Source of the DNA: an uncultured delta proteobacterium
Lineage (GTDB): Bacteria; Desulfobacterota; Desulfobacteria; Desulfobacterales; UBA2156
Direction: 5' to 3'
Assembly (NCBI GenBank): GCA_963736855.1
Contig: CAVTQK010000014.1
Span: forward strand, 1 to 64,000
DNA: 64,000 nucleotides
Part shown: positions 46,092 to 60,874 of the stretch, in pieces
How the letters are laid out: each line of letters starts with the position of its first letter
Numbering within the stretch: the first letter of the stretch is position 1
Made by a program: the position numbers and the translations under genes
The notes under the pieces: generated by a model
What the model was told of the DNA's origin: nothing
Seen by the model: only the letters and a program-made list of their open reading frames with translations
The model's database searches: none

Positions 46092-46583
46092 TTAATCCGG
46101 TATCTTTTTAAAAATGAGGTAGAAAAGAAAAACGCCCGCACCCAGAGTTACGGCGCTGTCAGCCACGTTGAAAGCCGGCCAGTGAAGATCTTTCCAATAG
46201 AAGTCGAGGAAATCTACAACCCTTCCATAACGGATGCGGTCGATGACGTTTCCTGCGGCACCTCCCAGGATCAGGGCAATCCCTGCACGAAGCAAGGAGT
46301 ATTCTTTAGGGAGCTTCCGAAAAAGAACGATCAGTAGTGTCGCGGCGATAAGGGTTCCGGCCACAAAGAAGAGACGCTTGATGTCGGAATATCCGTTCGA
46401 CAAAAAACCGAATGCGCCGCCCGGGTTTTGCAGATGCACGATATTGAAAAACCCTTGGATGACCGGAACGGATCCATTACGGGGAATCGATGTCATGATC
46501 AGAGACTTGGTAGACTGATCGAGGATCAACACCAAAAGAGAAAGGGCGGCGAGCAGCACCCATTTAGATTTTGTGGGCGCCAT
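46092..46583 (-). CDS. lspA: Lipoprotein signal peptidase II
   Basis: DQSTK, NPGGAFG, GAAGNVIDR, VVDF, FNVADS. Confidence 0.95.
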   Translation of the reverse strand: MAPTKSKWVLLAALSLLVLILDQSTKSLIMTSIPRNGSVPVIQGFFNIVHLQNPGGAFGFLSNGYSDIKRLFFVAGTLIAATLLIVLFRKLPKEYSLLRAGIALILGGAAGNVIDRIRYGRVVDFLDFYWKDLHWPAFNVADSAVTLGAGVFLFYLIFKKIPD

Positions 46584-46633
46584 TTTTTTTATTCGATCGG
46601 ATTTCCCGAGTCGGTAAGGTTCATGATCCTGCC

Positions 46634-49442
46634 TCATTCCTTCAAACCCATCGCGTTCAATGCTTCGAGGCATCGGTGGCATATGTCCGGATGCCGGAGA
46701 TCGGTTCCTACGGAAGTTGTATGGACCCAGCACCTCTCACATTTTTTGCCGGGTGCATTTTTCACCAGAACGGCAAGCCCGTCGATGGCTGCGCTTATAA
46801 ATGCGTTATCTCCGGGTGCATCCGGTGTGAGGATTGCCTCCGATACGATCAGGATAGATCGCAAATCCGCATCGAATTCTTTTAAAAATTCATGGAGCTC
46901 CCCTTGGGCATACAGCGTAATCGACGCATCCAAGGGGTGCCCGATACGCTTTTCGGCCCTGGCCATCTCCAGTGCTTTCAGCGCCTCGCTGCGCACCTGA
47001 AGCATGCGGTTCCATTTTTGGGCCAATTCCGGTTTGATGTAGACAGGGTTCGTCTCGGGAAGCGCCGCCATGTGAATGCTTTCGGCCTGGTCACCACCGG
47101 CCGGCATATGCCGCCAGATCTCTTCCGCGGTGAATGCCAATATCGGGGCCATGAGCCGTGAAATGACATCCACGATGTTGTAGAGGACGGTCTGGGCGCT
47201 TCTGCGCGATGCGGATCGCGGCGGCGCGGTGTAGAGCCGGTCCTTTAGAACATCGAGGTAAAAAGCGCTCAGATCCAAGGCGCAGAAGTTGTGCAATGCA
47301 TGGTAGATGATGTGAAACTCATAGTCGTCGTAGGCTTTGACCCCTTTTTCGATGAGTTCCTGGAGCCGGTGTAATGCAAACCGATCGATCTCCGGCATAT
47401 CCGCATAGGCCACTGCATCTGCCTGAGGATTGAAATCGAAAAGGTTCCCCAGCATGAACCGGCACGTGTTTCGGATGCGTCGGTAGGCATCGGTAAGCTG
47501 TTTGAGGATGTTTTCCGAAATGCGGATGTCCTCCCTGTAGTCCGTGGCACACACCCACAAGCGCAGGATCTCGGCTCCATATTTCTCAATGACTTCCCTG
47601 GGAGCCACGATGTTTCCCAACGACTTGGACATTTTTCTTCCTTCGGCGTCCACCACAAAACCGTGGGTCAGCACCGCGTCATAAGGGGCCCGGCCCCGGG
47701 TCCCCACAGCAGTCAGCAAGGCACTGTGAAACCATCCCCGGTGCTGATCGCTTCCTTCCAGGTAAAGGTCTGCCGGCCATTTCAACCCCGGCCGTTTTTC
47801 CAGCACCGCCGCGTGGCTTACTCCGGAGTCGAACCAGACGTCCAAGATATCCGATTCCTTGACGAAATTTTTACTGCCACACTGGGAACAACATTTCCCT
47901 TCAGGCAAGAAATCCGATATTTCCTTTTCAAACCAGATGTCGGCTCCGTGGGCTTCAAACTGGGCATAGACCATCTCCATGATGGCATCGTCCAAAAGGA
48001 TCGTATTGCAATCCCTGCAATAGAATACCGCGATAGGAACCCCCCACGCCCGCTGCCGGGAGACGCACCAGTCGGGCCGACCTTCGATCATCCCATAGAT
48101 CCGCTCCCGTCCCCAGTGGGGAATCCACCTGACCCGATCGATTTCCTCCAGGGAACGTTTTCTCAATCCTGTCTTGTCCATAGAGATGAACCACTGTGGG
48201 GTTGCTCTAAAAATAACCGGATTTTTGCACCGCCAGCAGTGGGGATAAGGGTGGGTTATGGACCCCTCGTTCAAAAGGGCTCCTGTCTCTTTCAGCTTTC
48301 GATTGATGGCCGGGTTGGCATCAAAAACGAACTGCCCTCCGAAAAAGCCTACATCCTCCGCGAATCGGCCCTCATCGTCCACCGGCGAATAGATATCAAG
48401 ACCGTACTCAAGCCCAACCTCGTAGTCTTCCCTGCCGTGCCCCGGAGCGGTGTGGACACAACCGGTCCCGGCATCCAGGGTGACATGGTTCGCCAGAATG
48501 ATCTGCGATGTCCGATTGTAAAGGGGATGGCGGCAGGTTTTTCCCTCCAGACCCTTGGACTCCAAAGTGCCGATAATCGAGGCATCGGACCTGCCGAAGA
48601 TCTCCATACAGGCATGGGCCAGGTATTTGGCCATAATATAGACTTCTCCATTACCGGCATCCATCGCTGCATATTCGAAATCCGGGTGCAGGGCGATAGC
48701 CAGATTGGCAGGAATCGTCCATGGCGTGGTTGTCCAGATGACCATGGATACCCGCTTCCCCGATAGTGCCAGGGAGGGCCTCACTCAGGTCATCGATCAT
48801 CGGGAATTTAACGTATATGGAAGGGGATGCGTCATCCTTGTATTCGATTTCGGCCTCGGCCAGCGCCGTACGGCACGTATTACACCAGTAAATCGGCTTT
48901 TTACTCCGAAACAGGCTTCCGTTTTTTGCAAACTTTCCGCATTCCCGTGCGATGGTGGCCTCGTAGTCATAAGTCATGGTGAGATAAGGCGACTCCCAGT
49001 GGCCCATCACCCCCAGGCGCTTGAACTCTTCCCTTTGGATGTCGATGAACTTTTCGGCGTAAGCACGGCACAGCCGGCGTATCTGAGCCTGGGAGAGTGT
49101 CCTTTTCTTGTCCCCCAGCTCCTTATCGACATTGTGTTCGATGGGGAGTCCGTGGCAGTCCCATCCCGGCACATAAACCGCGTCAAACCCCGACATCTGG
49201 CGGGACCGTACGATGATGTCTTTCAAGATCTTGTTCAATGCAGTGCCGATATGGATATTACCGTTGGCGTAAGGGGGGCCGTCGTGGAGGATAAACTGTT
49301 TTCGGCCCGAGGAAAGCTTCCGGATTCGATCATGCAGGTGGATATCCTCCCAGGCTTTGAGTTGTTCAGGCTCACGTTTATACAGGTTAGCCTTCATGGG
49401 GAAAGATGTTTCAGGCAGGTTCAGTGTCTTTTTATAGTCCAT
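46634..49442 (-). CDS. ileS: Isoleucyl-tRNA synthetase (frameshift near 48780)
   Basis: [41 protein letters not shown]-terminal CERCW zinc finger. Confidence 0.95.
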
Positions 49443-49902: not shown

Positions 49903-51549
49903 TCATAAGTCAGGGATTGTATCCGGTCCTGCCGATTGCCGTTTTTCCCGGTAGATCATCACCCCCATAATGCCCATCTGAAGCATGGAAAGGCCCACAA
50001 AATACCAGATCCACAATGGAAGCCCCACAATTACAGGATCCACACGCCCCCAGGACCAAAAATCGGTTCCCATAAAAAAAGTGAGACCCAGCAAGTAGAA
50101 ATAAGGCGATTGCATCCAGGCTGGAAAGGAAAAAACCAAGTGCCCCTTTTTCCATGCCAAAATCCCATAGGTCAATAGATAGATCCCGAATGCGATGAGC
50201 ATGACATAAACTACCGGTAAAAACCTGTTGGCGGATAACCACTTCAAATAAAAAGCGATCACGGCGGCTTCACCGGTGATAATAGATAACATGGCCGGCA
50301 GTGCATATCGGCGCTTGAAATAAAGGCCAAAGATGACGGTGGGAAAAAGCACCGCCAAACCGGTAAAGGTCTGGGTGGCGATCTGCAAGATGGTGGCCGG
50401 CGGCCGAAAGGCCAGAACCAGTCCTGCAAAGCCTAAAAGCGCCACAAACACTTTCCCGGTAGCCTCTTTTTGAACGGCGCTTGGACACATCAAGAATAAA
50501 ATGTCCCGGGAGAAAATCGAGCTTAGAGTCAACAACTGAGAATCCATCGTGGACATGAGGGCGGCCAGCCCGCCGGCGATCACAAGAGCCGCCATAGCAT
50601 CGCCTGAAAGGGAGGTCATCAACATGGGCAAAATGCGATCGGCCTGGCTTCCGGTCAACCCCGGTATCGAAAGGCGGCCTAGGACCCCGATTCCGACGGG
50701 CATGACGAAGACCGCTGTGCAGATCAGAGGATAATAAAGCATCATGAAACGGATCGTTTTTCGGCTGCGGGCGGCAAAAAACCGTTGAAAAAGTTGAGGA
50801 AACATCGGATCGCAGAAAAACCAGAGCATCATGAAACTCATCCAAATCCCGGGCGAGTATGCCCCCATGCCGCCGGGCCTGGAAAAAAGTTCCGGTGTCG
50901 TGGAAAGGGCCTTTTGGTGTGCCGCCACGAAGCCGCCATGATGTCCCGCTACGATGATGAGGGAGATCAATAGCATGACGAACATCAGCATCCCTTGAAA
51001 AAGGTCGGTCCAGGCCACCGCCCGCATCCCGCCGGTCAGGGTATAAAGCACGATGACGGCAGTCACCAGGGTGCAACCGCCAAAATAGGGCAATCCCAAC
51101 AGTTCCTCCAGGGCGTACCCGGCCGCCATGGGCTGCAATGCCAAATACGGCATGGTGAAGACGATCATTACCAGTGCAAATAAAATGGAAAGCGGGGGGC
51201 TTTCGTAAAGATGCCGGATCAACTCCGGCGGCGTAACGGCACCGGTTTTTCGGCCGACTTCCCAGATGCGCCGACCCAGGATCCAGAAAGTAACCGCCAT
51301 AAACCCGGTGCCGAACCCCATGATAGGGAAAAAGGCGTATCCGTCGCGATAGCCGGCTCCCGATGCTCCAAACACGGTAAAGGCCGAAAAATTTGTAGCG
51401 GCCATGGTCCCAAGCAAGACAACGGATCCGAGCTTTCGATCGGCCAGAAAATAACCTTCAGGGGTGAAATCAAACCGTCTCCTGGCCAACATCCCAATTA
51501 TCAGAACGATCAAAAAATAGCCTGACAATATAGCAATTCTAATAATCAT
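49903..51549 (-). CDS. Sodium:solute symporter (PanF/PutP family) with C-terminal DUF997/DUF3311-like extension
   Basis: YFLADR, TNFSAFT, GGMRAVAWTD, AALMSTMDSQLL; tail DFWSW...GLPLWIW. Confidence 0.88.
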   Translation of the reverse strand: MIIRIAILSGYFLIVLIIGMLARRRFDFTPEGYFLADRKLGSVVLLGTMAATNFSAFTVFGASGAGYRDGYAFFPIMGFGTGFMAVTFWILGRRIWEVGRKTGAVTPPELIRHLYESPPLSILFALVMIVFTMPYLALQPMAAGYALEELLGLPYFGGCTLVTAVIVLYTLTGGMRAVAWTDLFQGMLMFVMLLISLIIVAGHHGGFVAAHQKALSTTPELFSRPGGMGAYSPGIWMSFMMLWFFCDPMFPQLFQRFFAARSRKTIRFMMLYYPLICTAVFVMPVGIGVLGRLSIPGLTGSQADRILPMLMTSLSGDAMAALVIAGGLAALMSTMDSQLLTLSSIFSRDILFLMCPSAVQKEATGKVFVALLGFAGLVLAFRPPATILQIATQTFTGLAVLFPTVIFGLYFKRRYALPAMLSIITGEAAVIAFYLKWLSANRFLPVVYVMLIAFGIYLLTYGILAWKKGHLVFSFPAWMQSPYFYLLGLTFFMGTDFWSWGRVDPVIVGLPLWIWYFVGLSMLQMGIMGVMIYREKRQSAGPDTIPDL

Positions 51550-51560
51550 GTCATTCCCTC

Positions 51561-51615
51561 CAAAAAAAAATGCCACCCCGGTCGGGATGGCATCGCCTGA
51601 CATAACCTTTGATTG
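51561..51615 (-). promoter_or_regulatory. Leader attenuator / candidate riboswitch upstream of the symporter
   Basis: Minus strand GGTTATGTCAGGCGATGCCATCCCGACCGGGGTGGCAT plus T-run directly before the RBS; TTGATC-17-TAAATA promoter upstream. Confidence 0.65.
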
Positions 51616-51822: not shown

Positions 51823-52019
51823 ATGGCTTTCTCTTCGAAAAAACCAGACTATTTTCCCGTCCAACGCCGCAACTTGATTCTTGATCGGAAGTCATCACCG
51901 ACGACCGCCTTGACCCTCGGATTTGGCGCCGGCTGGAAAAGCAGGGCGTTAAGGTATCGATAGCCCCATCCACAAGCCCATCGAGGGACTCCCATCAGGA
52001 AAGGAGAAAAACACGTTGA
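51823..52019 (+). pseudogene. DeoR-family regulator with large internal deletion
   Basis: MAFSSKKPDYFPVQRRNLILD joined out of frame to EVITDDRLDPRIWRRLEKQGVKVSIA; stop overlaps the panB start. Confidence 0.65.
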
Positions 52020-52861
52020 AAAAGAAACTGACGCGCTTTGATCTGCAAAACATGAAAGACAACGGCCGGCGCGCGGTTTGGATCACCGCATATGATTACA
52101 TCACCGCCCAACTGGCAGAGGAAGCGGGCATGGACATGCTTCTGGTAGGCGACAGCCTCGGAATGGCCATTTACGGGTATCCGGGAACCATCCCGGTCAC
52201 CATGGACCAGTGCATTTGCCACGCCGAAGCCGTTCGCAGGGGCGCTCCAAATACTTTCGTGATCGGCGATATGCCGTTTGGAGCTTACCAGATCAGTATC
52301 CATGACGCAGTGCGCAACGCTGTGCGATTCCATAAAGAGGCCGGGGTGGACTGTGTGAAACTGGAGGGCGGCAAACGGGTAGGCCGGGTTATCCGGGCCA
52401 TTGCTGACGCCGGGATGCTGGTGATGGGGCATGTGGGGCTGACGCCCCAGAGTTCGAGCGCTTTGGGCGGATTCAAAGCCCAAGGCCGCACCGCCGAGAG
52501 TGCCCGGGCCGTTATCGAGGATGCCAAGGCGGTGTACGATGCTGGGGCATTCTCCGTGCTGGTGGAAGGTGTCCCGCCAGAGGTCACCCGGATCATCTGC
52601 CGGGAGATTCCCATACCGGTTTACGGCATTGGGGCTGGAGACTGCGACGGTCAGGTCATGATCTGCGTGGACATCCTCGGTCTTTTCCAGGCATTCACAC
52701 CCAAGTTCGTCAAACGGTACGGTAATGTGGCCGACGAGTATCGGAAGGTGTTTTCTACCTATATCGAGGAAGTGCGCAAGGGGGATTTTCCCGGCAAAGA
52801 ACACGTCTACCATATGGAAGAAGGAGAGATCGAGAAGCTGGCGGCGGAGTGGAAAAAATAG
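52016..52861 (+). CDS. panB: Ketopantoate hydroxymethyltransferase family
   Basis: ITAYD, LVGDSLG, DMPF, VKLEGG, HVGLTPQ, GIGAG, PKFVK. Confidence 0.92.
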   Translation: MKKKLTRFDLQNMKDNGRRAVWITAYDYITAQLAEEAGMDMLLVGDSLGMAIYGYPGTIPVTMDQCICHAEAVRRGAPNTFVIGDMPFGAYQISIHDAVRNAVRFHKEAGVDCVKLEGGKRVGRVIRAIADAGMLVMGHVGLTPQSSSALGGFKAQGRTAESARAVIEDAKAVYDAGAFSVLVEGVPPEVTRIICREIPIPVYGIGAGDCDGQVMICVDILGLFQAFTPKFVKRYGNVADEYRKVFSTYIEEVRKGDFPGKEHVYHMEEGEIEKLAAEWKK

Positions 52862-52863
52862 CC

Positions 52864-54201
52864 ATGGGAGAGAAGCGCTTCATTCTGAAATATGGAAAGG
52901 GAGAGGTCAGCTTCTCCATTCCAGAAGCGCATCTTCTCTATGAACTCGTGGGGCGCAACCGCAGGCCTCCGTCCGATCTGGCCGCAGCCTACCGTCACGC
53001 CCTGGATCAGCCCATTGACAGTCCCCCACTTAGGGAACTGCTCAAACCCGGCGAGACGGTGGCCATAACGGTCAGCGATATCACCCGCGGGTGGCAGCGT
53101 AACGCGGACACGCTGCCGCTGCTGCTGGAATACCTGAACGCGGCCGGGATTTCCGATGACAATGTGACCGTTATTATTGCGGTGGGGGCGCACCGCCAGA
53201 ACACAGAGGCCGAATTTGTGGAGCTTTGCGGCGAGGGGATCTGCCATCGGGTCAGGGTGGTCAATCACAACGCCTGGGACACTGAAAACATGATCTATCT
53301 GGGAAAGACCAGCCGCGGCACTGAAGTCTCGATAAACCGGCTGGTCGCTGAAGCCGATAAAGTGATCCTCACCGGCGGAGTGATTTACCATTACATGGTC
53401 GGATACGGGGGAGGCCGGAAAAGCATCATGCCGGGCGTTTCATCGTTGAGGACCATCCAGCAGAGCCATATGTGGGCGATGCAGAGGGAAGTCGGTGCGG
53501 GTACGAATCCTCTGTCCGCCAACAAGATGACGAAAGGAAACCCTGCTCATGAAGATATGATGGAAGCAACGGCCTTTGTGAAGCCGGACTTCATCGTGAA
53601 TGTAGTCCCGAATCTGGACGGGGATATCGCAGGGATTTTCACGGGCAACTGGATTTCTGCATGGCTTGAGGCCACGCGGATGGTGGATGATATCTTCGGG
53701 GTGGAAATCCGCGAGCAGGCGGATATTGTGATTGCCACTGCGGGAGGATACCCCAAGGATATCAACTTGTACCAGACGCAGAAGACCATCGACAACGCCT
53801 TCTCTGCCATGAAACCGGGCGGGACGGCTGTCATCTTGGCCGAATGTTTGGACATAACCGAGCCCGCGGAATTCTTTGACTGGTTTAGCTGCCACACTTT
53901 CCTGGAAATGGAGAAAGCCGTGAGGGCCAATTTCCTGATTTCCGGATGGGTGGCGGTGCGACAGATGGAGTATTGTCGGAAGGGCACCATGATCCTCATG
54001 ACCCGCCGGGAAAACCTTGACCTTGCCGGAAGGGCCGGGGTTGTACCGGTCAGCAGCATGGACGATGCCCTGCGATTGGCCTATGAGAACAGCAGAACGG
54101 ACAGACCGAAAATCACGATCATGCCCCAGGGGGCGAACACCTTTCCCATACTCGTGGGAAAGGGGCAGGATTTTTCCCGGGAAAGCCTTATCGAGGCTTA
54201 A
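52864..54201 (+). CDS. LarA-family nickel-pincer 2-hydroxyacid racemase/epimerase
   Basis: SDITR, GAHR, HYMVGYGGGRKS, GNPAH, GGYPKDINLYQTQK. Confidence 0.88.
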   Translation: MGEKRFILKYGKGEVSFSIPEAHLLYELVGRNRRPPSDLAAAYRHALDQPIDSPPLRELLKPGETVAITVSDITRGWQRNADTLPLLLEYLNAAGISDDNVTVIIAVGAHRQNTEAEFVELCGEGICHRVRVVNHNAWDTENMIYLGKTSRGTEVSINRLVAEADKVILTGGVIYHYMVGYGGGRKSIMPGVSSLRTIQQSHMWAMQREVGAGTNPLSANKMTKGNPAHEDMMEATAFVKPDFIVNVVPNLDGDIAGIFTGNWISAWLEATRMVDDIFGVEIREQADIVIATAGGYPKDINLYQTQKTIDNAFSAMKPGGTAVILAECLDITEPAEFFDWFSCHTFLEMEKAVRANFLISGWVAVRQMEYCRKGTMILMTRRENLDLAGRAGVVPVSSMDDALRLAYENSRTDRPKITIMPQGANTFPILVGKGQDFSRESLIEA

Positions 54202-54229
54202 CCACATTTATCATAAAGGAGGATTGGAC

Positions 54230-55216
54230 ATGAAGAAAGCATTGGTGTCGAGTTTAGCGGTGTTGTTGGTTCTCGTGTGCGTCGGGCCGACTTGGGCCCA
54301 GTATAAGGCCACCATGAGGCTGGCCTCCGCCCTGCCCATGGACCATCCTTACATGGTCGGGGCGCAGAAATTTGCCGATCTCATCAAGGAAAGAACCCAA
54401 GGCCGCATCGAGATCAAGCTTTACCCCAGCAACCAGTTGGGCAAAGGCGAGCGCGAAATGACGGAGGGCATCCAACAGGGCGCCATCGACTTGTTGGTGA
54501 CCTCCACGGGGCCTTTAGGCGGGTTCAGCCCGTCCATCAACATCCTTGACTTCCCTTTTCTTTTCCGGGATTTCAACCATGTAGACCTTGTAATGGACGG
54601 TCCGATCGGCCGCAAGCTGCTGGACGACTTTGAGAAGGCCAATATCAAGGCCCTGTCTTTTTGGGAAAACGGGTTTCGTCACCTGACCAATTCCAAAGTC
54701 GAAGTCAAGAAGGTCACAGATGCTAAAGGTTTGAAGATCCGAACCATGGAAAACAAAGTTCATCTGTCGGCATGGAAGGACGCCGGCCTCAATCCCACCC
54801 CCATGGCCTGGGGCGAGGTTTACACCGCGCTGCAGCAGAAGGTCATTGATGGACAGGAAAACCCGATCGCCGTTTTCTACAGCTCCAAGTTCTGGGATGC
54901 GGGCCAGAAGCATTTCTCGCTCACGGCACACGTCTACTCCCCGTCCCCGTTCCTGATGAGCAAGAAAACCTTTGATTCCATGCCCAAGGAGGACCAGGAG
55001 CTTTTCGTGAAAACTTCTTATGAGGCAGGCAAGTTCCAGCGGAAAATCAACCGCGATGCCGAGGAGGCGAAATTGAAGGAGATGGCCGACAAGGGGGTCG
55101 CCATAGTGCGTGACGTGGACCGGGAGAGCTTCAAGAAGGCCATGGCACCGACCTATGAGGCTTTCAGCAGTCAGTACCCCAAAGCTGAAATCGAAGCCAT
55201 TATGAACGCCAAGTAG
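54230..55216 (+). CDS. dctP: TRAP transporter solute-binding protein
   Basis: Signal peptide, WENGFR, KGLKIR, EVYTALQQKVIDGQENP. Confidence 0.92.
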   Translation: MKKALVSSLAVLLVLVCVGPTWAQYKATMRLASALPMDHPYMVGAQKFADLIKERTQGRIEIKLYPSNQLGKGEREMTEGIQQGAIDLLVTSTGPLGGFSPSINILDFPFLFRDFNHVDLVMDGPIGRKLLDDFEKANIKALSFWENGFRHLTNSKVEVKKVTDAKGLKIRTMENKVHLSAWKDAGLNPTPMAWGEVYTALQQKVIDGQENPIAVFYSSKFWDAGQKHFSLTAHVYSPSPFLMSKKTFDSMPKEDQELFVKTSYEAGKFQRKINRDAEEAKLKEMADKGVAIVRDVDRESFKKAMAPTYEAFSSQYPKAEIEAIMNAK

Positions 55217-55228
55217 TCACCCTGCCAC

Positions 55229-55264
55229 AGGCGCCCTTCGGAGCCTTCCCAGAGAAGGGCGCCT
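55229..55264. other. Stem-loop after dctP
   Basis: AGGCGCCCTTC...GAAGGGCGCCT. Confidence 0.65.
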
Positions 55265-55346
55265 TATCGTTTTCGTAAAAACGCCGGATGGTCAGACCCA
55301 TCGTCATTCAGCCGGGCGTGAATATCGATTTGCCCTGGAGTATGTA

Positions 55347-55838
55347 ATGCGTGCATTGCAGATCTTCAACGAATGGATCGTGAAATTGGGGAGTTGGGGG
55401 ACGATTCTGTTCATGGCCGTCATCGCCGTCGTAATCCCCTATGAAGTCATCGGCCGATATCTGTTTCAGAGAATGAATATCTGGACGGGGGAGGTTTCTA
55501 CATACTCCCTGGTTTGGGCTTCCATGCTGGGCGGCGCCGTGGGGCTAAGAAAGGGCTACCTGGTAAGCATGACCTCGGTGCTGGAAGCCGTCCCGCCTGC
55601 AACGGCAAAAGCATTGAAGCTTGTAAGTTATTTATGCAGCCTCGTTTTCTTCGCCGCCTTGTTCGGCTATGGCCTTTTTCAGACCATCTATAACTGGAAA
55701 CAGACCTCCCCGGCCATGGGCTTGATCATGAGCTTTCCCTACGCTGCGCTTCCGGCCGGTTTTTTCATCATGTTTTTCGTCACCCTGGAACAGTTCCTGG
55801 GATTGCTCGGTCTCGGTGCGAAAGGAGAAGGCCGATGA
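55347..55838 (+). CDS. dctQ: TRAP small permease
   Basis: 4 TM segments, QTSPAMG, position between dctP and dctM. Confidence 0.85.
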   Translation: MRALQIFNEWIVKLGSWGTILFMAVIAVVIPYEVIGRYLFQRMNIWTGEVSTYSLVWASMLGGAVGLRKGYLVSMTSVLEAVPPATAKALKLVSYLCSLVFFAALFGYGLFQTIYNWKQTSPAMGLIMSFPYAALPAGFFIMFFVTLEQFLGLLGLGAKGEGR

Positions 55839-57112
55839 TCGTGTTTGTCGGCTCCTTTATCGCACTGTTGTGCATCTCCGCACCCATCCTCGTGGCACTG
55901 GGCGGCTGCTCCCTGGCCTATGCCCTGATCAGCGGGAATGTGCCCATCACGACGCTGATTCAAACCACATTCGGAGGCCTGGCGACATTCCCCCTGCTCG
56001 CCATACCGCTCTTCATGCTGGCGGGAAACCTCATGAATGCGGGCGGGATCACGCCGGTCCTCGTGGACTTTGCCCGCCTCCTGCTTGGGCATATCCGGGG
56101 CGGGCTGGGGCATGCCACGATCCTGGCCTGCGCCATCTTCGCGGCGATCTCCGGAGCTGCCGTCGCCACTGCAGTCGCCATCGGCGTGGTGATGATTCCC
56201 GCCATGCATCAGGCAGGCTACGACGATGATGTGGCCGCCGCCCTGACCTGCACGTCCTCTTGTATGGGGCCCATCATTCCTCCCAGCATCCCCTTCATCA
56301 TCTACGGAGTTGCCGCCAACGTTTCGATCGGCGCCCTCTTTCTGGGCGGAGTTTTTCCGGGCATCCTGCTCGGCCTGGCCTTGATGTCCTATATGGCCTA
56401 TGTGGCGACCAAGCGCAACTACCCGAAAGACCCCCGAAGGCCGATGAAAGAAGTCCTGGTAGCCACATGGAAGGCTTTGCCTGCCCTCTTCATGCCGATC
56501 ATGATCATGGGCGGGATCCTGACCGGTATGTTTACCCCAACCGAGGCCGCCGGCATCACGGTCGTTTATGCCGCCCTTGTGGGAGGTTTTATCTACCGCA
56601 AGTTGACCTTGAGAAACCTTCCCGATGTCCTGCTCAAAGCCGGTCTGGAATCGGGAATGGTCATGATGCTCATTGCCATGTCAGAACCTTTTGCCTGGAT
56701 CGTCGCCCTGAATCAGATCCCACAGTTTCTCATCGATTGGATTTCTACCTTGACCACCTCTCCCTGGGTGATCCTGCTGCTGGTCAATGTTTTTCTCCTG
56801 CTCCTCGGGATCCCCATGGAAACCGCACCCGCCCTCGTCATCGTCACACCGGTGCTCGCGCCCATAGCCGTCACCCTGGGCATCGATCCGGTGCATATGG
56901 GCATCGTCATCTGCCTAAACCTTGTTCTGGGTCTGATTACACCGCCGGTCGGCGCTGTGCTCTTTGCGGTCTGCGGGGTGGCGAATATCTCCCTCGACCG
57001 CCTGAGCAGGGCAATTTGGGCACCCTTTGCGGTCGCTCTGGTGGTGCTGCTTATCGTGACTTACATCCCCTGGTTCAGCACCTTCCTGCCTAGAATTTTC
57101 ATGGGAGGTTAA
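55835..57112 (+). CDS. dctM: TRAP large permease
   Basis: LLAIPLFMLAG, IIPPSI, FTPTEA, GIDPVH, TPPVG. Confidence 0.93.
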   Translation: MIVFVGSFIALLCISAPILVALGGCSLAYALISGNVPITTLIQTTFGGLATFPLLAIPLFMLAGNLMNAGGITPVLVDFARLLLGHIRGGLGHATILACAIFAAISGAAVATAVAIGVVMIPAMHQAGYDDDVAAALTCTSSCMGPIIPPSIPFIIYGVAANVSIGALFLGGVFPGILLGLALMSYMAYVATKRNYPKDPRRPMKEVLVATWKALPALFMPIMIMGGILTGMFTPTEAAGITVVYAALVGGFIYRKLTLRNLPDVLLKAGLESGMVMMLIAMSEPFAWIVALNQIPQFLIDWISTLTTSPWVILLLVNVFLLLLGIPMETAPALVIVTPVLAPIAVTLGIDPVHMGIVICLNLVLGLITPPVGAVLFAVCGVANISLDRLSRAIWAPFAVALVVLLIVTYIPWFSTFLPRIFMGG

Positions 57113-57443
57113 GGGTAGGGGCGCTATGGTTCAAGTCATTATCCCCTTTCATGGGAGACCTTATCGGTTCGATGTGCCGGACAGGAATCCGGCCGAGGTC
57201 TTGAGCCCCAGGTCCGCGCCGTCTGTTGACAATAAGGGACCGCCTCACGGTCGGACTGGCCGAGGGATGGCTCCAAGGCGGACTGATCCTGGGAATTGCT
57301 CCGCTTTCCCTGACGGGACCCACTGAAATTCCCGACCGGGTGGTCCGTGGGTTTGCCGAGGTGACTGAAGCTCTGATCAGACAGTCGGCGCCCCGCAATC
57401 CCTTTTACAACTCCTGAGACTTCTTTCATAAAGGCGGACTATA

Positions 57444-57911
57444 ATGGCAACAAACCAGAGACGACCGCTGTTGGGCATCCCCGCGCATCGCTGTGGCGGG
57501 TCTAAACCCTCACTGCAGAGAGGGCGGTTTGTTCGGCACCGAGGATGATGAGGAAATTGCCCCGGCCGTGGCCGAAGCGCGGGACGCCGGAATCAACGCC
57601 GAAGGCCCGCTTCCGGCCGACACGGTCTTTTCCAAAATGCTAGGAGGCATGTATGATCTGGTGGTGGTGATGTAACACGATCAGGGCCATATCCCGACCA
57701 AGCTTGTGGGGTTCAAATACGACGACAAGACCCAAACCTGGGGCAGCATGGCCGGCGTTACGTCACCCTGGGATTACCGATCATTCGCACATCCGTGGAT
57801 CACGGAACTGCCTTCGGCAAGGCCGGTGAGGGACGTGCCAATCCCCAATCGATGATCGACGTTATCCGCCTTGCGGCCTTGCTGGCATTGCAGGATAGAA
57901 AGTGGGGTTAG
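57444..57911 (+). pseudogene. pdxA: PdxA-family dehydrogenase pseudogene (internal deletion, nonsense codon, frameshift)
   Basis: [12 protein letters not shown] fused to [38 protein letters not shown]. Confidence 0.85.
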
Positions 57912-58043: not shown

Positions 58044-58832
58044 ATGAGCATGAGTCATCAAGTAAAAACTAAAATAAACCGGTTGATCACAGAATGGCCC
58101 AGAGGCACGGTTGGAGTTGCATCTTATTTGAACACCTTGGGCTTCGGCCATGATCTTCTGGCAAAATACAGAAAGAGCGGATGGATAGATTCCTTTGGAA
58201 GAGGCGCCTATACCCTCAATGAAGACAAAGTGGAATGGGCTGGTGCCCTTTATGCGCTTCAAACCCAACTGAAGCTCAATGTCCATGCAGGAGGGAAAAC
58301 ATCCCTTGAACTGAAAGGTTATGCCCATTACCTGCCAGTTCAACAGAAGAAGATATTTCTGTATGGCCCTCTCGGGCAGGTTTTGCCCATGTGGTTCAAA
58401 AGAGCCCCTTTAGGTGTCGATATAGTCATGACGCGCACAAATCTGTTTCCTGCCCACGTCCAAGATGGTTTTTCAGACTACACTGAGAGGGATTTCTTTT
58501 TAAGAATCTCCTCCCCTGAAAGGGCAGCGCTGGAAATGCTTCATTTGGTCCCCCGAAAAGTGACTTTCGAGGAGGCCTCATTAATCCTGGAGAATCTCGT
58601 CAGCCTCCGTCCGGAGCTTGTTCAGAAATTGCTTGATTCATGCCGGTCTGTCAAAGTGAAGAGGCTCTTCCTTTACATGGCGGAGAAACACGAGCATGCC
58701 TGGCTTTCGCAGCTCGATCTTTCCCGAGTCGATTTGGGGCATGGAAAGCGGATGCTGGTTCCGAACGGAAGGTATGAGAAGAAATATCGGATCACAGTTC
58801 CCAGGGATCATCAGGAAGAGGTCTCCGGATGA
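58044..58832 (+). CDS. Type IV TA antitoxin, AbiEi family
   Basis: SGWIDSFGRGAY, GGKTSL, SSPERAALE, SVKVKRLFLY. Confidence 0.85.
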   Translation: MSMSHQVKTKINRLITEWPRGTVGVASYLNTLGFGHDLLAKYRKSGWIDSFGRGAYTLNEDKVEWAGALYALQTQLKLNVHAGGKTSLELKGYAHYLPVQQKKIFLYGPLGQVLPMWFKRAPLGVDIVMTRTNLFPAHVQDGFSDYTERDFFLRISSPERAALEMLHLVPRKVTFEEASLILENLVSLRPELVQKLLDSCRSVKVKRLFLYMAEKHEHAWLSQLDLSRVDLGHGKRMLVPNGRYEKKYRITVPRDHQEEVSG

Positions 58833-59746
58833 AGGATACGGTATTCTTCAGACAGGCGGAATTGCTCCTCAGAATCTTGCCTTTGATTCATAGAGAGGAG
58901 GTGTTCGCCTTGAAGGGAGGGACGGCGATCAACTTCTTCGTTCGGGACCTCCCTCGTCTTTCAGTGGACATAGACCTTACGTATCTTCCGGTGAATGAAA
59001 GAGACTTTGCCCTGAACGATATCCGTAATGCTTTGATACGTATCTCTGAAGAGATCCAGAGGAGGATACCAGGGACAAAAGTGACCTTGAGAAAAATCCA
59101 CGGCGCAAATATCTTGAAGGGCATGGTTGTGGAAAGAGAGGGAGTCACCGTCAAAATAGAGCCAAATCTGGTCATGAGAGGCTCTGTGTATCCCCCCGAA
59201 GTACGAACCTTGTCCAGGAAAGCTCAAGAGGTCTTTGAACTTTCTATCCAGAACCGAATCCTTTCCACTGAAGAATTGTACGCCGGGAAAATCTGTGCAG
59301 CCCTTGACCGTCAGCATCCCAGGGATCTCTTCGATGTGCATTGGCTGATCAGAAATGAGGATCTCAGCCTTAGAACAAGAAAGGCATTCCTTGTCTATGT
59401 CATAAGCCACCCAAGACCCATGATCGAAATCCTGAATCCCCGCTTCAATGACATACGGGATGTCTTCGAAAATGAATTCAAGGAACTGGTAACTGAGAAA
59501 GTGAGCTATGAGGAGCTTTGCGCGACAAGAGAAAGCTTGGTTTCAATGCTAACGAATGAGGTTACGCCTGAGGAAAAACACTTCCTCGTTTCAGTAAAGG
59601 AAGGCGTGCCCAAGTGGGATCTTCTTGGGCTTGAAGGAGTTGAGAAACTGCCCGCAGTCAAGTGGAAGCTCCTGAATATCGGGAAAATGGAACCATCAAA
59701 ACACAGGGATGCTGTTCATAAGTTAAGGGATTATGTCGGTATGTAG
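58829..59746 (+). CDS. Type IV TA toxin, AbiEii nucleotidyltransferase
   Basis: LKGGTAIN, RLSVDID, KICAALDRQHPRDLFD; ATGA overlap with the antitoxin. Confidence 0.9.
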   Translation: MKDTVFFRQAELLLRILPLIHREEVFALKGGTAINFFVRDLPRLSVDIDLTYLPVNERDFALNDIRNALIRISEEIQRRIPGTKVTLRKIHGANILKGMVVEREGVTVKIEPNLVMRGSVYPPEVRTLSRKAQEVFELSIQNRILSTEELYAGKICAALDRQHPRDLFDVHWLIRNEDLSLRTRKAFLVYVISHPRPMIEILNPRFNDIRDVFENEFKELVTEKVSYEELCATRESLVSMLTNEVTPEEKHFLVSVKEGVPKWDLLGLEGVEKLPAVKWKLLNIGKMEPSKHRDAVHKLRDYVGM

Positions 59747-59949
59747 AACCCACCTGCCCGGGTAAGATGTGATCGTTGGGCGGCTCAACCTTTCTTCAGA
59801 AGCAAGGAAAAGTCCGCAAAATCGCCTGGAAATGGGAGAAAAGCCTTCAATTGACAGTCGCGCACAAGAAGAATAGAATCGCGTTGTAATTGGCTATTCG
59901 TTACAGACAGTTACCCAAGGCAAACACAACTCACTGGTGGACATGGCCT

Positions 59950-60874
59950 ATTCGGCCTGGTCAGCGATTTCCTTTCCTCATGCTGGAATCATCTGCGCTC
60001 CCAAAGCCGGGTCAACAAGCTGCAAGGTCGTATCCAATTCGGTGGCGCCTTGAGCGGACGCGACACGTCCGCCACGCAAAAAACGATAAGTGGACTACTC
60101 AAACTGATGTTTCCCGATCCCGAAGCCAATATCCCCAACGATGCCATCGAGTGGGCTGCTAAGCTCGCTCTGGAATGTCGCCGAAGGGTGAAGGAGCAAC
60201 AAAAACGCATAGGGGCTGCCGAATTCCGAAACACCCATTTCAGTTTCACCATGATCCCCGATGGGATTGAGCAATTCGTCTCAACACCTGAACTTCACCG
60301 CGAGAACAGCATCGGCAGCGACCCGCTCCCTGCCGATCAGATATGGGCGTTGTCTCCCGGCGGCACTGATGAGAATCCCGGACTGTTCTGCATTGAGGTG
60401 ACGGAAGGACCAGGAAGTGGGGTGAAGATTCTCAATCAAAGCCCTCCGGGGCCGCTCAAGGAGAGCGTGCGCTGTGCCGAACAAAATCTCTATGCCAGAG
60501 CAAGGGAACTGGTCGGTGATCGCGATCCACGTGCCCATGAGTTCACCATCCAGTTCCGTGCTTTTGATGCCTGCAAGAGCGCTGCGGCAACAGGAATACC
60601 CATCTTGCTCGCCATGAGTTCCGCGCTGGTCGAGCGCAGCCTGGAAGGCGGACTCGTCATCGTGGGCGGACTCAATCTCGGGGGATCCATCGAGCCCATA
60701 TACAACGCCGTCAGCATCATCGAACTGGCTGCCGACAAAGGAGCCCAGAAAATCCTCATTCCTGTCTCTGCGCGCAAGCAACTTTTCGAATTACCTGACG
60801 ACTTGGCCACCAAAGTCATTGTCGTGTATTATGCAGATGCAAAAGATGCCCTGCTCAAAGCGCTCAGTGAATAA
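59950..60874 (+). pseudogene. brxL: 5'-truncated BREX BrxL Lon-like protease
   Basis: GLVSDFL, GALSGRD, SGLLKL, ALECRRRVKEQQKRIG and Lon-like C-terminal domain; N-terminal part absent. Confidence 0.8.

Follow-up and report, generated by a model that had tools for sequence, protein, structure and literature searches.

The window analysed here (64,000 nucleotides from an uncultured delta proteobacterium of the Desulfobacterales, contig CAVTQK010000014.1, positions 1 to 64,000) carries a panB paralog, designated panB2, followed by a gene of the LarA racemase group (larA1) and by dctPQM, which encode a tripartite ATP-independent periplasmic (TRAP) transporter, among fragments of further genes. 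What would a relative of ketopantoate hydroxymethyltransferase (KPHMT) be doing beside an epimerase, an importer and the debris of catabolic genes? The first-pass annotation had offered either pantoate salvage or catabolism, or breakdown of a branched sugar acid such as apionate by reversed PanB chemistry. The answer favored here, to which an even chance is given, is that the locus is an eroded copy of a two-module catabolic operon with two branches for four-carbon 2,4-dihydroxy acids (tetronates or 2,4-dihydroxybutyrate).

A decayed operon and its intact relatives

An intact form of the operon, which the first-pass annotation had suggested looking for, exists in several families of Thermodesulfobacteriota, many sulfate reducers among its carriers, in the order deoR or iclR, panB2, larA1, dctPQM, larA2, DUF1537 kinase gene, pdxA2 and sometimes ilvD. 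Among the best 80 of 93 genome loci around larA1 relatives, PanB adjoins larA1 in 51 at a strict cut of 50% identity, and a more distant PanB does so in 9 further loci, mostly of Bacillota and six of them with GlcD-type dehydrogenases; the linkage of panB to larA is conserved. The regulator gene upstream of panB2 is deoR in 20/80 loci and iclR in 6/80, and panC lies within none of the 80. Where at least 8 kb of downstream sequence is available (49 loci), larA2 is present and the operon complete in 25, always with kinase, pdxA, dctP and panB (25/25) and the kinase gene adjacent to the pdxA paralog; ilvD is present in 9 of the 25. The distribution of larA1 is patchy (13/301 class genomes). Of the 27 carrier genomes searched, 26 have larE and 25 acsB, and two carriers are in culture, Desulfofustis glycolicus DSM 9705 (L019) and Dethiosulfatarculus sandiegensis (L070).

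The operon is modular. Around larA2, in the best 80 of 262 metagenome loci, many of them short, pdxA was found in 52, the kinase in 47, PanB in 9 and larA1 in 7, and the kinase module keeps PanB even without larA1 (L155, L349). In Bacillota a different PanB lineage stands beside DUF1537-pdxA or pdxA-larA2 (L192, L197, L198, L247), and PanB paralogs adjoin ilvD paralogs in L206, L207, L244 and L246. Links to kinase/pdxA, to ilvD and to isomerase-DUF1537 operons with a tripartite tricarboxylate transporter (TTT) thus recur independently in other PanB lineages. Many metagenome contigs (several of L325-L399) carry larA2-DUF1537-pdxA2 or larA2-pdxA2 without PanB. Two sets of genes near some panB2-larA1 pairs were rejected as operon members and taken for neighbors, peptide ABC/S58/M20 genes and C45/GGT/panG genes; each seems restricted to a handful of related lineages, and the full operon lacks both.

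In the window panB2, larA1 and dctPQM are intact, all on the forward strand and all above their family cut-offs in profile searches, and the co-oriented unit of deoR remnant, panB, larA-like gene, dctPQM, fragments and pdxA remnant described from the sequence alone stands, positions included (Table 1). The start of larA2, a piece of the kinase gene and a broken pdxA are packed into 770 bases downstream of dctPQM. The deoR pieces are 48-54% identical to the intact DeoR of a relative, with weak E-values (0.006 and 7e-4), and the pdxA2 pseudogene is 76-79% identical to operon PdxA across 94-95 residues. Since the deoR deletion junction, the downstream collapse of larA2, kinase and pdxA2, and the pdxA stop are common to the related locus L004 (LarA 93% identical), the decay is genuine; L004 lacks the single-base pdxA frameshift, which may therefore be an assembly error. 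Contigs of three runs barely cover 57284-57717 and were not used either way. The repressor and the kinase branch have been deleted, and panB2-larA1-dctPQM are under purifying selection: their ratios of nonsynonymous to synonymous substitution (dN/dS) against four relatives are 0.06-0.15 (panB2 0.07-0.10, larA1 0.09-0.15), and against L004 resemble those of ileS and lspA. A promoter scan gave no clear site ahead of panB2.

Elsewhere the genome (25 contigs, completeness 100%) holds panC (C9), a panE-like gene (C21), a full-length pdxA (C15), housekeeping ilvD, several GlcD-type genes and, as the first-pass annotation had wanted checked, a second panB (C13); canonical panB, panG and panD were not found in it.

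Table 1. Features of the decayed operon in the window
Feature	Coordinates	Strand	Description
deoR remnant	51823..51965	+	N- and C-terminal pieces, deletion-fused; tblastn to intact DeoR of L010
panB2	52016..52861	+	intact PanB paralog; PF02548 336.4 bits, TIGR00222 292 bits
larA1	52849..54201	+	intact LarAH10 family gene; NF052525 599.9 bits
dctP	54230..55216	+	TRAP solute-binding protein; 38-45% identity to nearest solved relatives
dctQ	55347..55838	+	TRAP small permease; PF04290
dctM	55835..57112	+	TRAP large permease; PF06808, TIGR00786
larA2 remnant	57126..57227	+	first 34 codons; 62-65% identity to intact LarA2 of L009, L012
DUF1537 kinase remnant	57229..57420	+	internal piece, 36-61%; tblastx to intact-operon kinase genes (L006, L010, L015, others)
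pdxA2 pseudogene	57444..57896	+	start, large deletion, stop 57673-57675, frameshift near 57760

The divergent sodium:solute symporter (49903-51603, reverse strand), with a C-terminal extension, had been taken for a PanF-family member of the unit and is ruled out as such: it scores below all equivalog cut-offs (174.8 bits against 328 for PanF TIGR02119) and adjoins the operon in 1/80 loci only, the closest relative L004. Upstream, ileS (46092-49442) is split by a one-base insertion at 48771 that is absent from contigs of two runs and is an assembly error. As the assembly has such indel errors and larE is intact in G165, the two frames of larE (C9:138722-139505) probably reflect another; acsB on C9 (a 245-residue open frame) looks split much like ileS. 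Directly after the decayed operon come an intact AbiEi/AbiEii type IV toxin-antitoxin pair (58044-60874), almost identical in L004 (synonymous divergence 0.02-0.04 against ~0.2-0.36 for the operon genes), and a truncated fragment of the phage-exclusion (BREX) gene brxL.

The PanB2 clade and the LarA proteins

A quick maximum-likelihood tree built from 121 PanB rows (family cut-offs PF02548 28.7, TIGR00222 207.55) places the window PanB in a clade of 71 rows, with an SH-like approximate likelihood ratio (SH-aLRT) support of 99, apart from PanB linked to panG or panC; 20 of the 30 top canonical PanB loci lie beside panG. Seven residues that we take to be the catalytic and metal residues of PanB, D45, S46, D84, K112, E114, H136 and E181 (1m3u alignment numbering), are invariant in 71/71 clade rows. 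The clade differs from canonical PanB at three positions (E. coli numbering), of which 21 and 179 presumably line the same pocket as 214: position 21 is aromatic (W/F) in 71/71 rows against 0/61 canonical, L179 occurs in 71/71 against 1/61, and I214 in 71/71 against 0/61. In E. coli PanB, making I202, I212 or V214 smaller is reported to admit larger substrates (PMC7610986, PMC7611260). The larger residues of PanB2 at or near the substrate pocket hence suggest a smaller substrate.

The clade splits into three subgroups, each with a gene context of its own: A, the present operon; B, an ectoine-type operon (iclR-panB-U32-like gene-aminotransferase or GDH-DoeA-like-DoeB2-like-TRAP); and C, lrp-panB-393-aa protein-amino-acid dehydrogenase, to which the second PanB of the window genome belongs. 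Sister subclade B has 10 rows (support 93, joining node 98). Its hydrolases are called DoeA- and DoeB2-like because they fall below the cut-offs (468.7 bits against 613, and 276.2 against 550). Ectoine yields an unbranched C4 skeleton, not pantoate.

Several further observations concern these and other paralogs. The B-type operon (L144:706-10258; also L146, L147, L161, L162, L236), present in many Desulfobacterota, is a candidate anaerobic ectoine pathway from which diaminobutyrate would exit via the PanB paralog; its 316-residue U32-like protein has no Pfam or NCBIfam match, and an atlas search puts it near U32-like clusters. The C13 gene of the window genome (G000:C13:132300-136400; L153:4296-8426) is followed by the 393-residue protein, to which an atlas search assigned no family (best 0.89), and by a Glu/Leu/Phe/Val-dehydrogenase-CBS fusion; in relatives lrp lies upstream. 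A third PanB paralog (~42% identical) ends an operon of TTT transporter, xylose-isomerase-like protein, DUF1537 and sometimes class II aldolase/transketolase (L156:769-7846, L157, L158, L281-L289). One genome, G123 (L070, L164, L229-L232), has six PanB homologues, and several of them lie in different operons that look catabolic.

LarA1 is a predicted 2-hydroxyacid racemase or epimerase of the LarAH10 family, dependent on the nickel-pincer nucleotide (NPN). It exceeds the LarAH10 cut-off (NF052525) of 540, its NPN-binding and catalytic residues D77, R80, H115, H181, K191, H207, Q309 and K312 are invariant, and the genome encodes the maturation genes that had been proposed for checking (larB, larC, and larE in two frames; larE is intact in 25/26 other carriers). 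By family it is not lactate-specific, scoring 290.8 bits against 460 for lactate racemase LarA (NF033504), and Megasphaera elsdenii LarAH10 is reported to have no lactate activity, with kcat/KM values (per M per s) of 5.3 for 2,4-dihydroxybutyrate, 1.1-1.2 for 4-deoxy-tetronates and 0.13 for 2-hydroxy-3,3-dimethylbutyrate, the gem-dimethyl analogue (PMC11770544). Table S1 of PMC7583248 does not list PanB (COG0413) as a neighbor of any LarA group. LarA2 belongs to an unassigned LarA family (best NCBIfam score 299 against 500) and is a candidate tetronate 2-epimerase.

A proposed folate-coupled route and its rivals

The two-module operon would work as follows. The TRAP transporter would import tetronates (erythronate or threonate) and probably 2,4-dihydroxybutyrate. 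The nearest solved relatives of DctP are 4PDD, 4PDH, 4P9K/4PAK and 4NQ8, presumably erythronate and pantoate complexes; its predicted structure has a confidence (pLDDT) of 87 with an alignment and 41 without. Pantoate- or erythronate-bound DctP homologues are mentioned, without named entries, in the accessible text of PMC11668362. In module 1 of the intact form LarA2 would epimerise C2 of the tetronate, the kinase (PF07005/PF17042, the DUF1537 tetronate kinase family) would form the 4-phosphate, and PdxA2 would oxidise C3 with loss of CO2 to dihydroxyacetone phosphate, a scheme that adds an epimerase to the known DtnK/PdxA2 route. The kinase-PdxA pair, of which the window keeps remnants, points to tetronates, and DUF1537 kinases have a part in the breakdown of four-carbon acid sugars (PMC7954711).

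Module 2 would consist of LarA1 and PanB2, with IlvD or a GlcDF-type dehydrogenase. PanB chemistry requires a 2-oxo acid with a C4 hydroxyl, of which 4-hydroxy-2-oxobutyrate (HOB) is the unbranched one, and only HOB or its 4-amino analogue would be an intermediate common to this context and the ectoine one. HOB would arise either from a tetronate that is dehydrated or from 2,4-dihydroxybutyrate that is racemised and oxidised; PanB2 would then run backwards, HOB and tetrahydrofolate (THF) giving pyruvate and methylene-THF, and the latter would enter the Wood-Ljungdahl pathway. In a synthetic pathway that uses other enzymes, a dehydratase does convert a tetronate to HOB (PMC10079672), and Pseudomonas putida PanB is reported to give partial HOB-aldolase complementation in vivo (bioRxiv 10.1101/2025.02.17.638773). 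Reverse PanB chemistry feeding one-carbon units to folate, as the first-pass annotation had conceived for one of its options, is the best reading. Loss of the repressor and module 1 would leave panB2-larA1-dctPQM probably unrepressed in this lineage; with ilvD and GlcD-type genes elsewhere in the genome, the remnant could still import and split a C4 acid, or it may now serve mainly pantoate and coenzyme A (CoA) supply. More tentatively, with the balance leaning somewhat to doubt, the whole PanB paralog clade is proposed as a shared exit enzyme of several as yet undescribed catabolic pathways of anaerobes (for tetronates/2,4-dihydroxybutyrate, ectoine/diaminobutyrate and another amino acid), cleaving unbranched 4-substituted 2-oxobutyrates to pyruvate and methylene-THF and repeatedly displacing housekeeping panB.

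A number of findings weigh against the tetronate reading. One representative kinase and one PdxA2 fall below the D-threonate equivalog cut-offs (200.9 against 450 for NF047819; 306.2 against 583 for NF002891). As ilvD is near the operon in 13/80 loci and GlcD in 6/80, a dedicated step to HOB is missing from most operons. Where IlvD is present it passes the ordinary dihydroxyacid dehydratase (DHAD) model TIGR00110, and the usual DHAD product is the normal substrate of PanB; in the accessible text of PMC10079672, E. coli and S. solfataricus IlvD do not figure among the enzymes significantly active on D-threonate. The best measured substrate of LarAH10 is gluconate/mannonate, at 170 per M per s (PMC11770544). 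L179 alone is not diagnostic, because Neisseria PanB (1o66) shares it. In L004 the 5' half of panB2 is lost while larA1 and dctPQM are kept; that genome retains an intact C-type PanB paralog.

A further objection concerns CoA supply. That PanB2 is always an extra copy was suggested by a first sample, in which 18/20 genomes had a canonical-scoring PanB, and was overturned for carriers of the A operon; most of that sample was of B and C type. Among the 25 full-operon genomes (from 27 larA2 loci, leaving out L032 and L007, which has no kinase) only 4 have a canonical-type PanB, 2 of these being a variant with a putative housekeeping role, whereas panC is kept in 22 and panG occurs in 1. In the family of genome G122 (81 genomes) canonical panB, called by score and sequence-checked for 34 of the 56, is present in 0/14 larA1 carriers against 56/67 others. 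In the genus of the window a canonical-scoring PanB is present in the four genomes that lack larA1 and absent from the two that have it; operon and canonical panB mostly exclude each other. As the genomes are kin and many are incomplete, the losses need not be independent, and a Fisher test on the counts overstates the association. In G124 and others PanB2 is the sole PanB and panC is kept. Of the two things that the first-pass annotation had named together as fatal to its proposal, a sole panB is thus found in some carriers, and an unconserved linkage is not. With canonical panB mostly missing and panC kept, CoA must be supplied by PanB2 or by imported pantoate. That PanB2 would have to accept ketoisovalerate, unless pantoate comes from outside, weakens the argument from the shrunken pocket. 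On the sequences PanB2 seems to have taken over vitamin B5 synthesis in these hosts, and it would retain enough ketopantoate-forming activity for carriers to lose canonical panB. As a side observation, 14 of the 45 genomes searched (G148-G154, G130, G131, G133, G147, G155, G156, G164) have PanB, seven of them also panG, and no panC match, which suggests another route of pantothenate ligation or incomplete assemblies.

These counts speak for a rival in which PanB2, LarA1 and TRAP form a pantoate unit. Imported pantoate would be racemised by LarA1 for PanC, with surplus passing through ketopantoate to ketoisovalerate and methylene-THF; or else IlvD and PanB2 would make ketopantoate, LarA1 correcting the stereochemistry without PanG, and the kinase module would be a co-transported passenger on the same importer. 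The persistence of larA1 and dctPQM beside a truncated panB2 in L004, the scarcity of panG, the pantoate complexes that the nearest DctP structures presumably include, and the presence of panG within 10 kb of panB2-larA1 in 8 loci, apparently of one lineage, agree with it. It leaves unexplained, however, both the occurrence of the clade in ectoine-type operons and the independent links of PanB to kinase and pdxA; panC adjoins the unit nowhere in the survey, several carriers of the panB2-larA1 pair alone have no panC match, and LarAH10 acts 40-fold less well on the 3,3-dimethyl analogue. Moreover, of the 11 G122-family non-carriers without canonical panB, 10 hold another PanB paralog, and in nine members lacking both larA1 and canonical panB only the third, TTT-context paralog was found, so that substitution for canonical panB is general to catabolic-context paralogs, the simplest reading being that these still make the small amount of ketopantoate needed. 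Pantoate salvage or catabolism, the first option of the first-pass annotation, is thus a live rival and not the best reading: we consider it doubtful, and keep it because TRAP and LarA1 might supply pantoate where canonical panB is missing.

A second rival would oxidise the tetronate at C2, by a GlcDF-type enzyme or by hydride exchange on the LarA cofactor, to 3,4-dihydroxy-2-oxobutyrate, which PanB2 would split to hydroxypyruvate and methylene-THF. No dehydratase is required, and most loci have none; GlcD/GlcF lie inside the operon in 6 Bacillota loci, and PanB stays with the kinase module in the absence of larA1. The Desulfobacterota operons, however, have no dehydrogenase gene, the hydrophobic bulk in the pocket would be ill-suited to a C3 hydroxyl, and the ectoine context does not fit, all of which makes this route improbable. 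Apionate or another C3-branched sugar acid, from which IlvD dehydration or oxidation and then stripping of hydroxymethyls by PanB2 would deliver a tetronate to the kinase module, would join both modules on one substrate, and its 2,3-dihydroxy-3,3-disubstituted shape would chemically be that of a DHAD substrate, as befits a DHAD-type IlvD, yet this second proposal of the first-pass annotation did not hold up and apionate is an unlikely substrate, the scheme being the least probable of all: the kinase is not OiaK-type (19 bits against 700, NF042436), the PanB2 pocket gains bulk, and no ApnO-like gene, through which known apionate routes pass (PMC13753588), recurs in the operon maps, the genomes not having been searched for ApnO.

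Significance and relation to known systems

If the tetronate reading is right, PanB2 would be a natural HOB hydroxymethyltransferase in a natural folate-coupled, Entner-Doudoroff-like C4 route feeding the Wood-Ljungdahl pathway; the reverse step, pyruvate plus a one-carbon unit to HOB, is one that synthetic methylotrophy looks for and at present covers with promiscuous aldolases alone. Candidate native substrates would follow for two orphan LarA families, as would a candidate route by which tetronates and ectoine are consumed anaerobically in sediments, and genes annotated as panB in Desulfobacterota would often have to be read as paralogs with a catabolic role. The window itself gives the impression of a catabolic operon shrinking to a cofactor-supply unit. 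The two cultured carriers make the claim directly testable. Neither this operon nor a PanB clade with a catabolic role was found described in the literature searched, outside which most subscription journals lie. The present analysis adds the paralog clade with its residue signature, the sister context of ectoine type, the mutual exclusion with canonical panB and the way in which this copy has decayed; by sequence all parts belong to known families.

Compared with KPHMT (EC 2.1.2.11), PanB2 keeps all catalytic and metal residues and passes both family cut-offs; it nevertheless shares ~44-52% identity with the housekeeping PanB found in these taxa, forms a separate clade with a W21/L179/I214/S216 signature, and stands beside catabolic genes, never beside panC in 80 loci. 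With LarAH10 and other racemases of hydrophobic 2-hydroxyacids, LarA1 shares the family score, the NPN-binding and catalytic residues, and larBCE in the genome. The steps of the DtnK/PdxA2 route, with D-threonate 4-phosphate dehydrogenase, were reportedly worked out by Zhang et al. in 2016. Module 1 would work like that pathway (also covered by PMC7954711 and PMC12994016), having the same pair of DUF1537 kinase and pdxA paralog, a DeoR regulator and a TRAP importer of the erythronate/pantoate-type group; the present operon differs in its additional genes, for two LarA epimerases, for a PanB paralog and in many cases for IlvD, in its anaerobic hosts, in a kinase and PdxA2 below the equivalog cut-offs, and, in the window, in deletion of the module. 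The non-phosphorylating Entner-Doudoroff and Dahms routes and the engineered HOB aldolase, the HOB routes in the accessible text of the literature found being synthetic, share with module 2 a dehydratase step followed by C3-C4 cleavage of a 2-oxo-4-hydroxy acid to pyruvate; unlike in those routes, the one-carbon fragment would here go to THF and not be released as formaldehyde.

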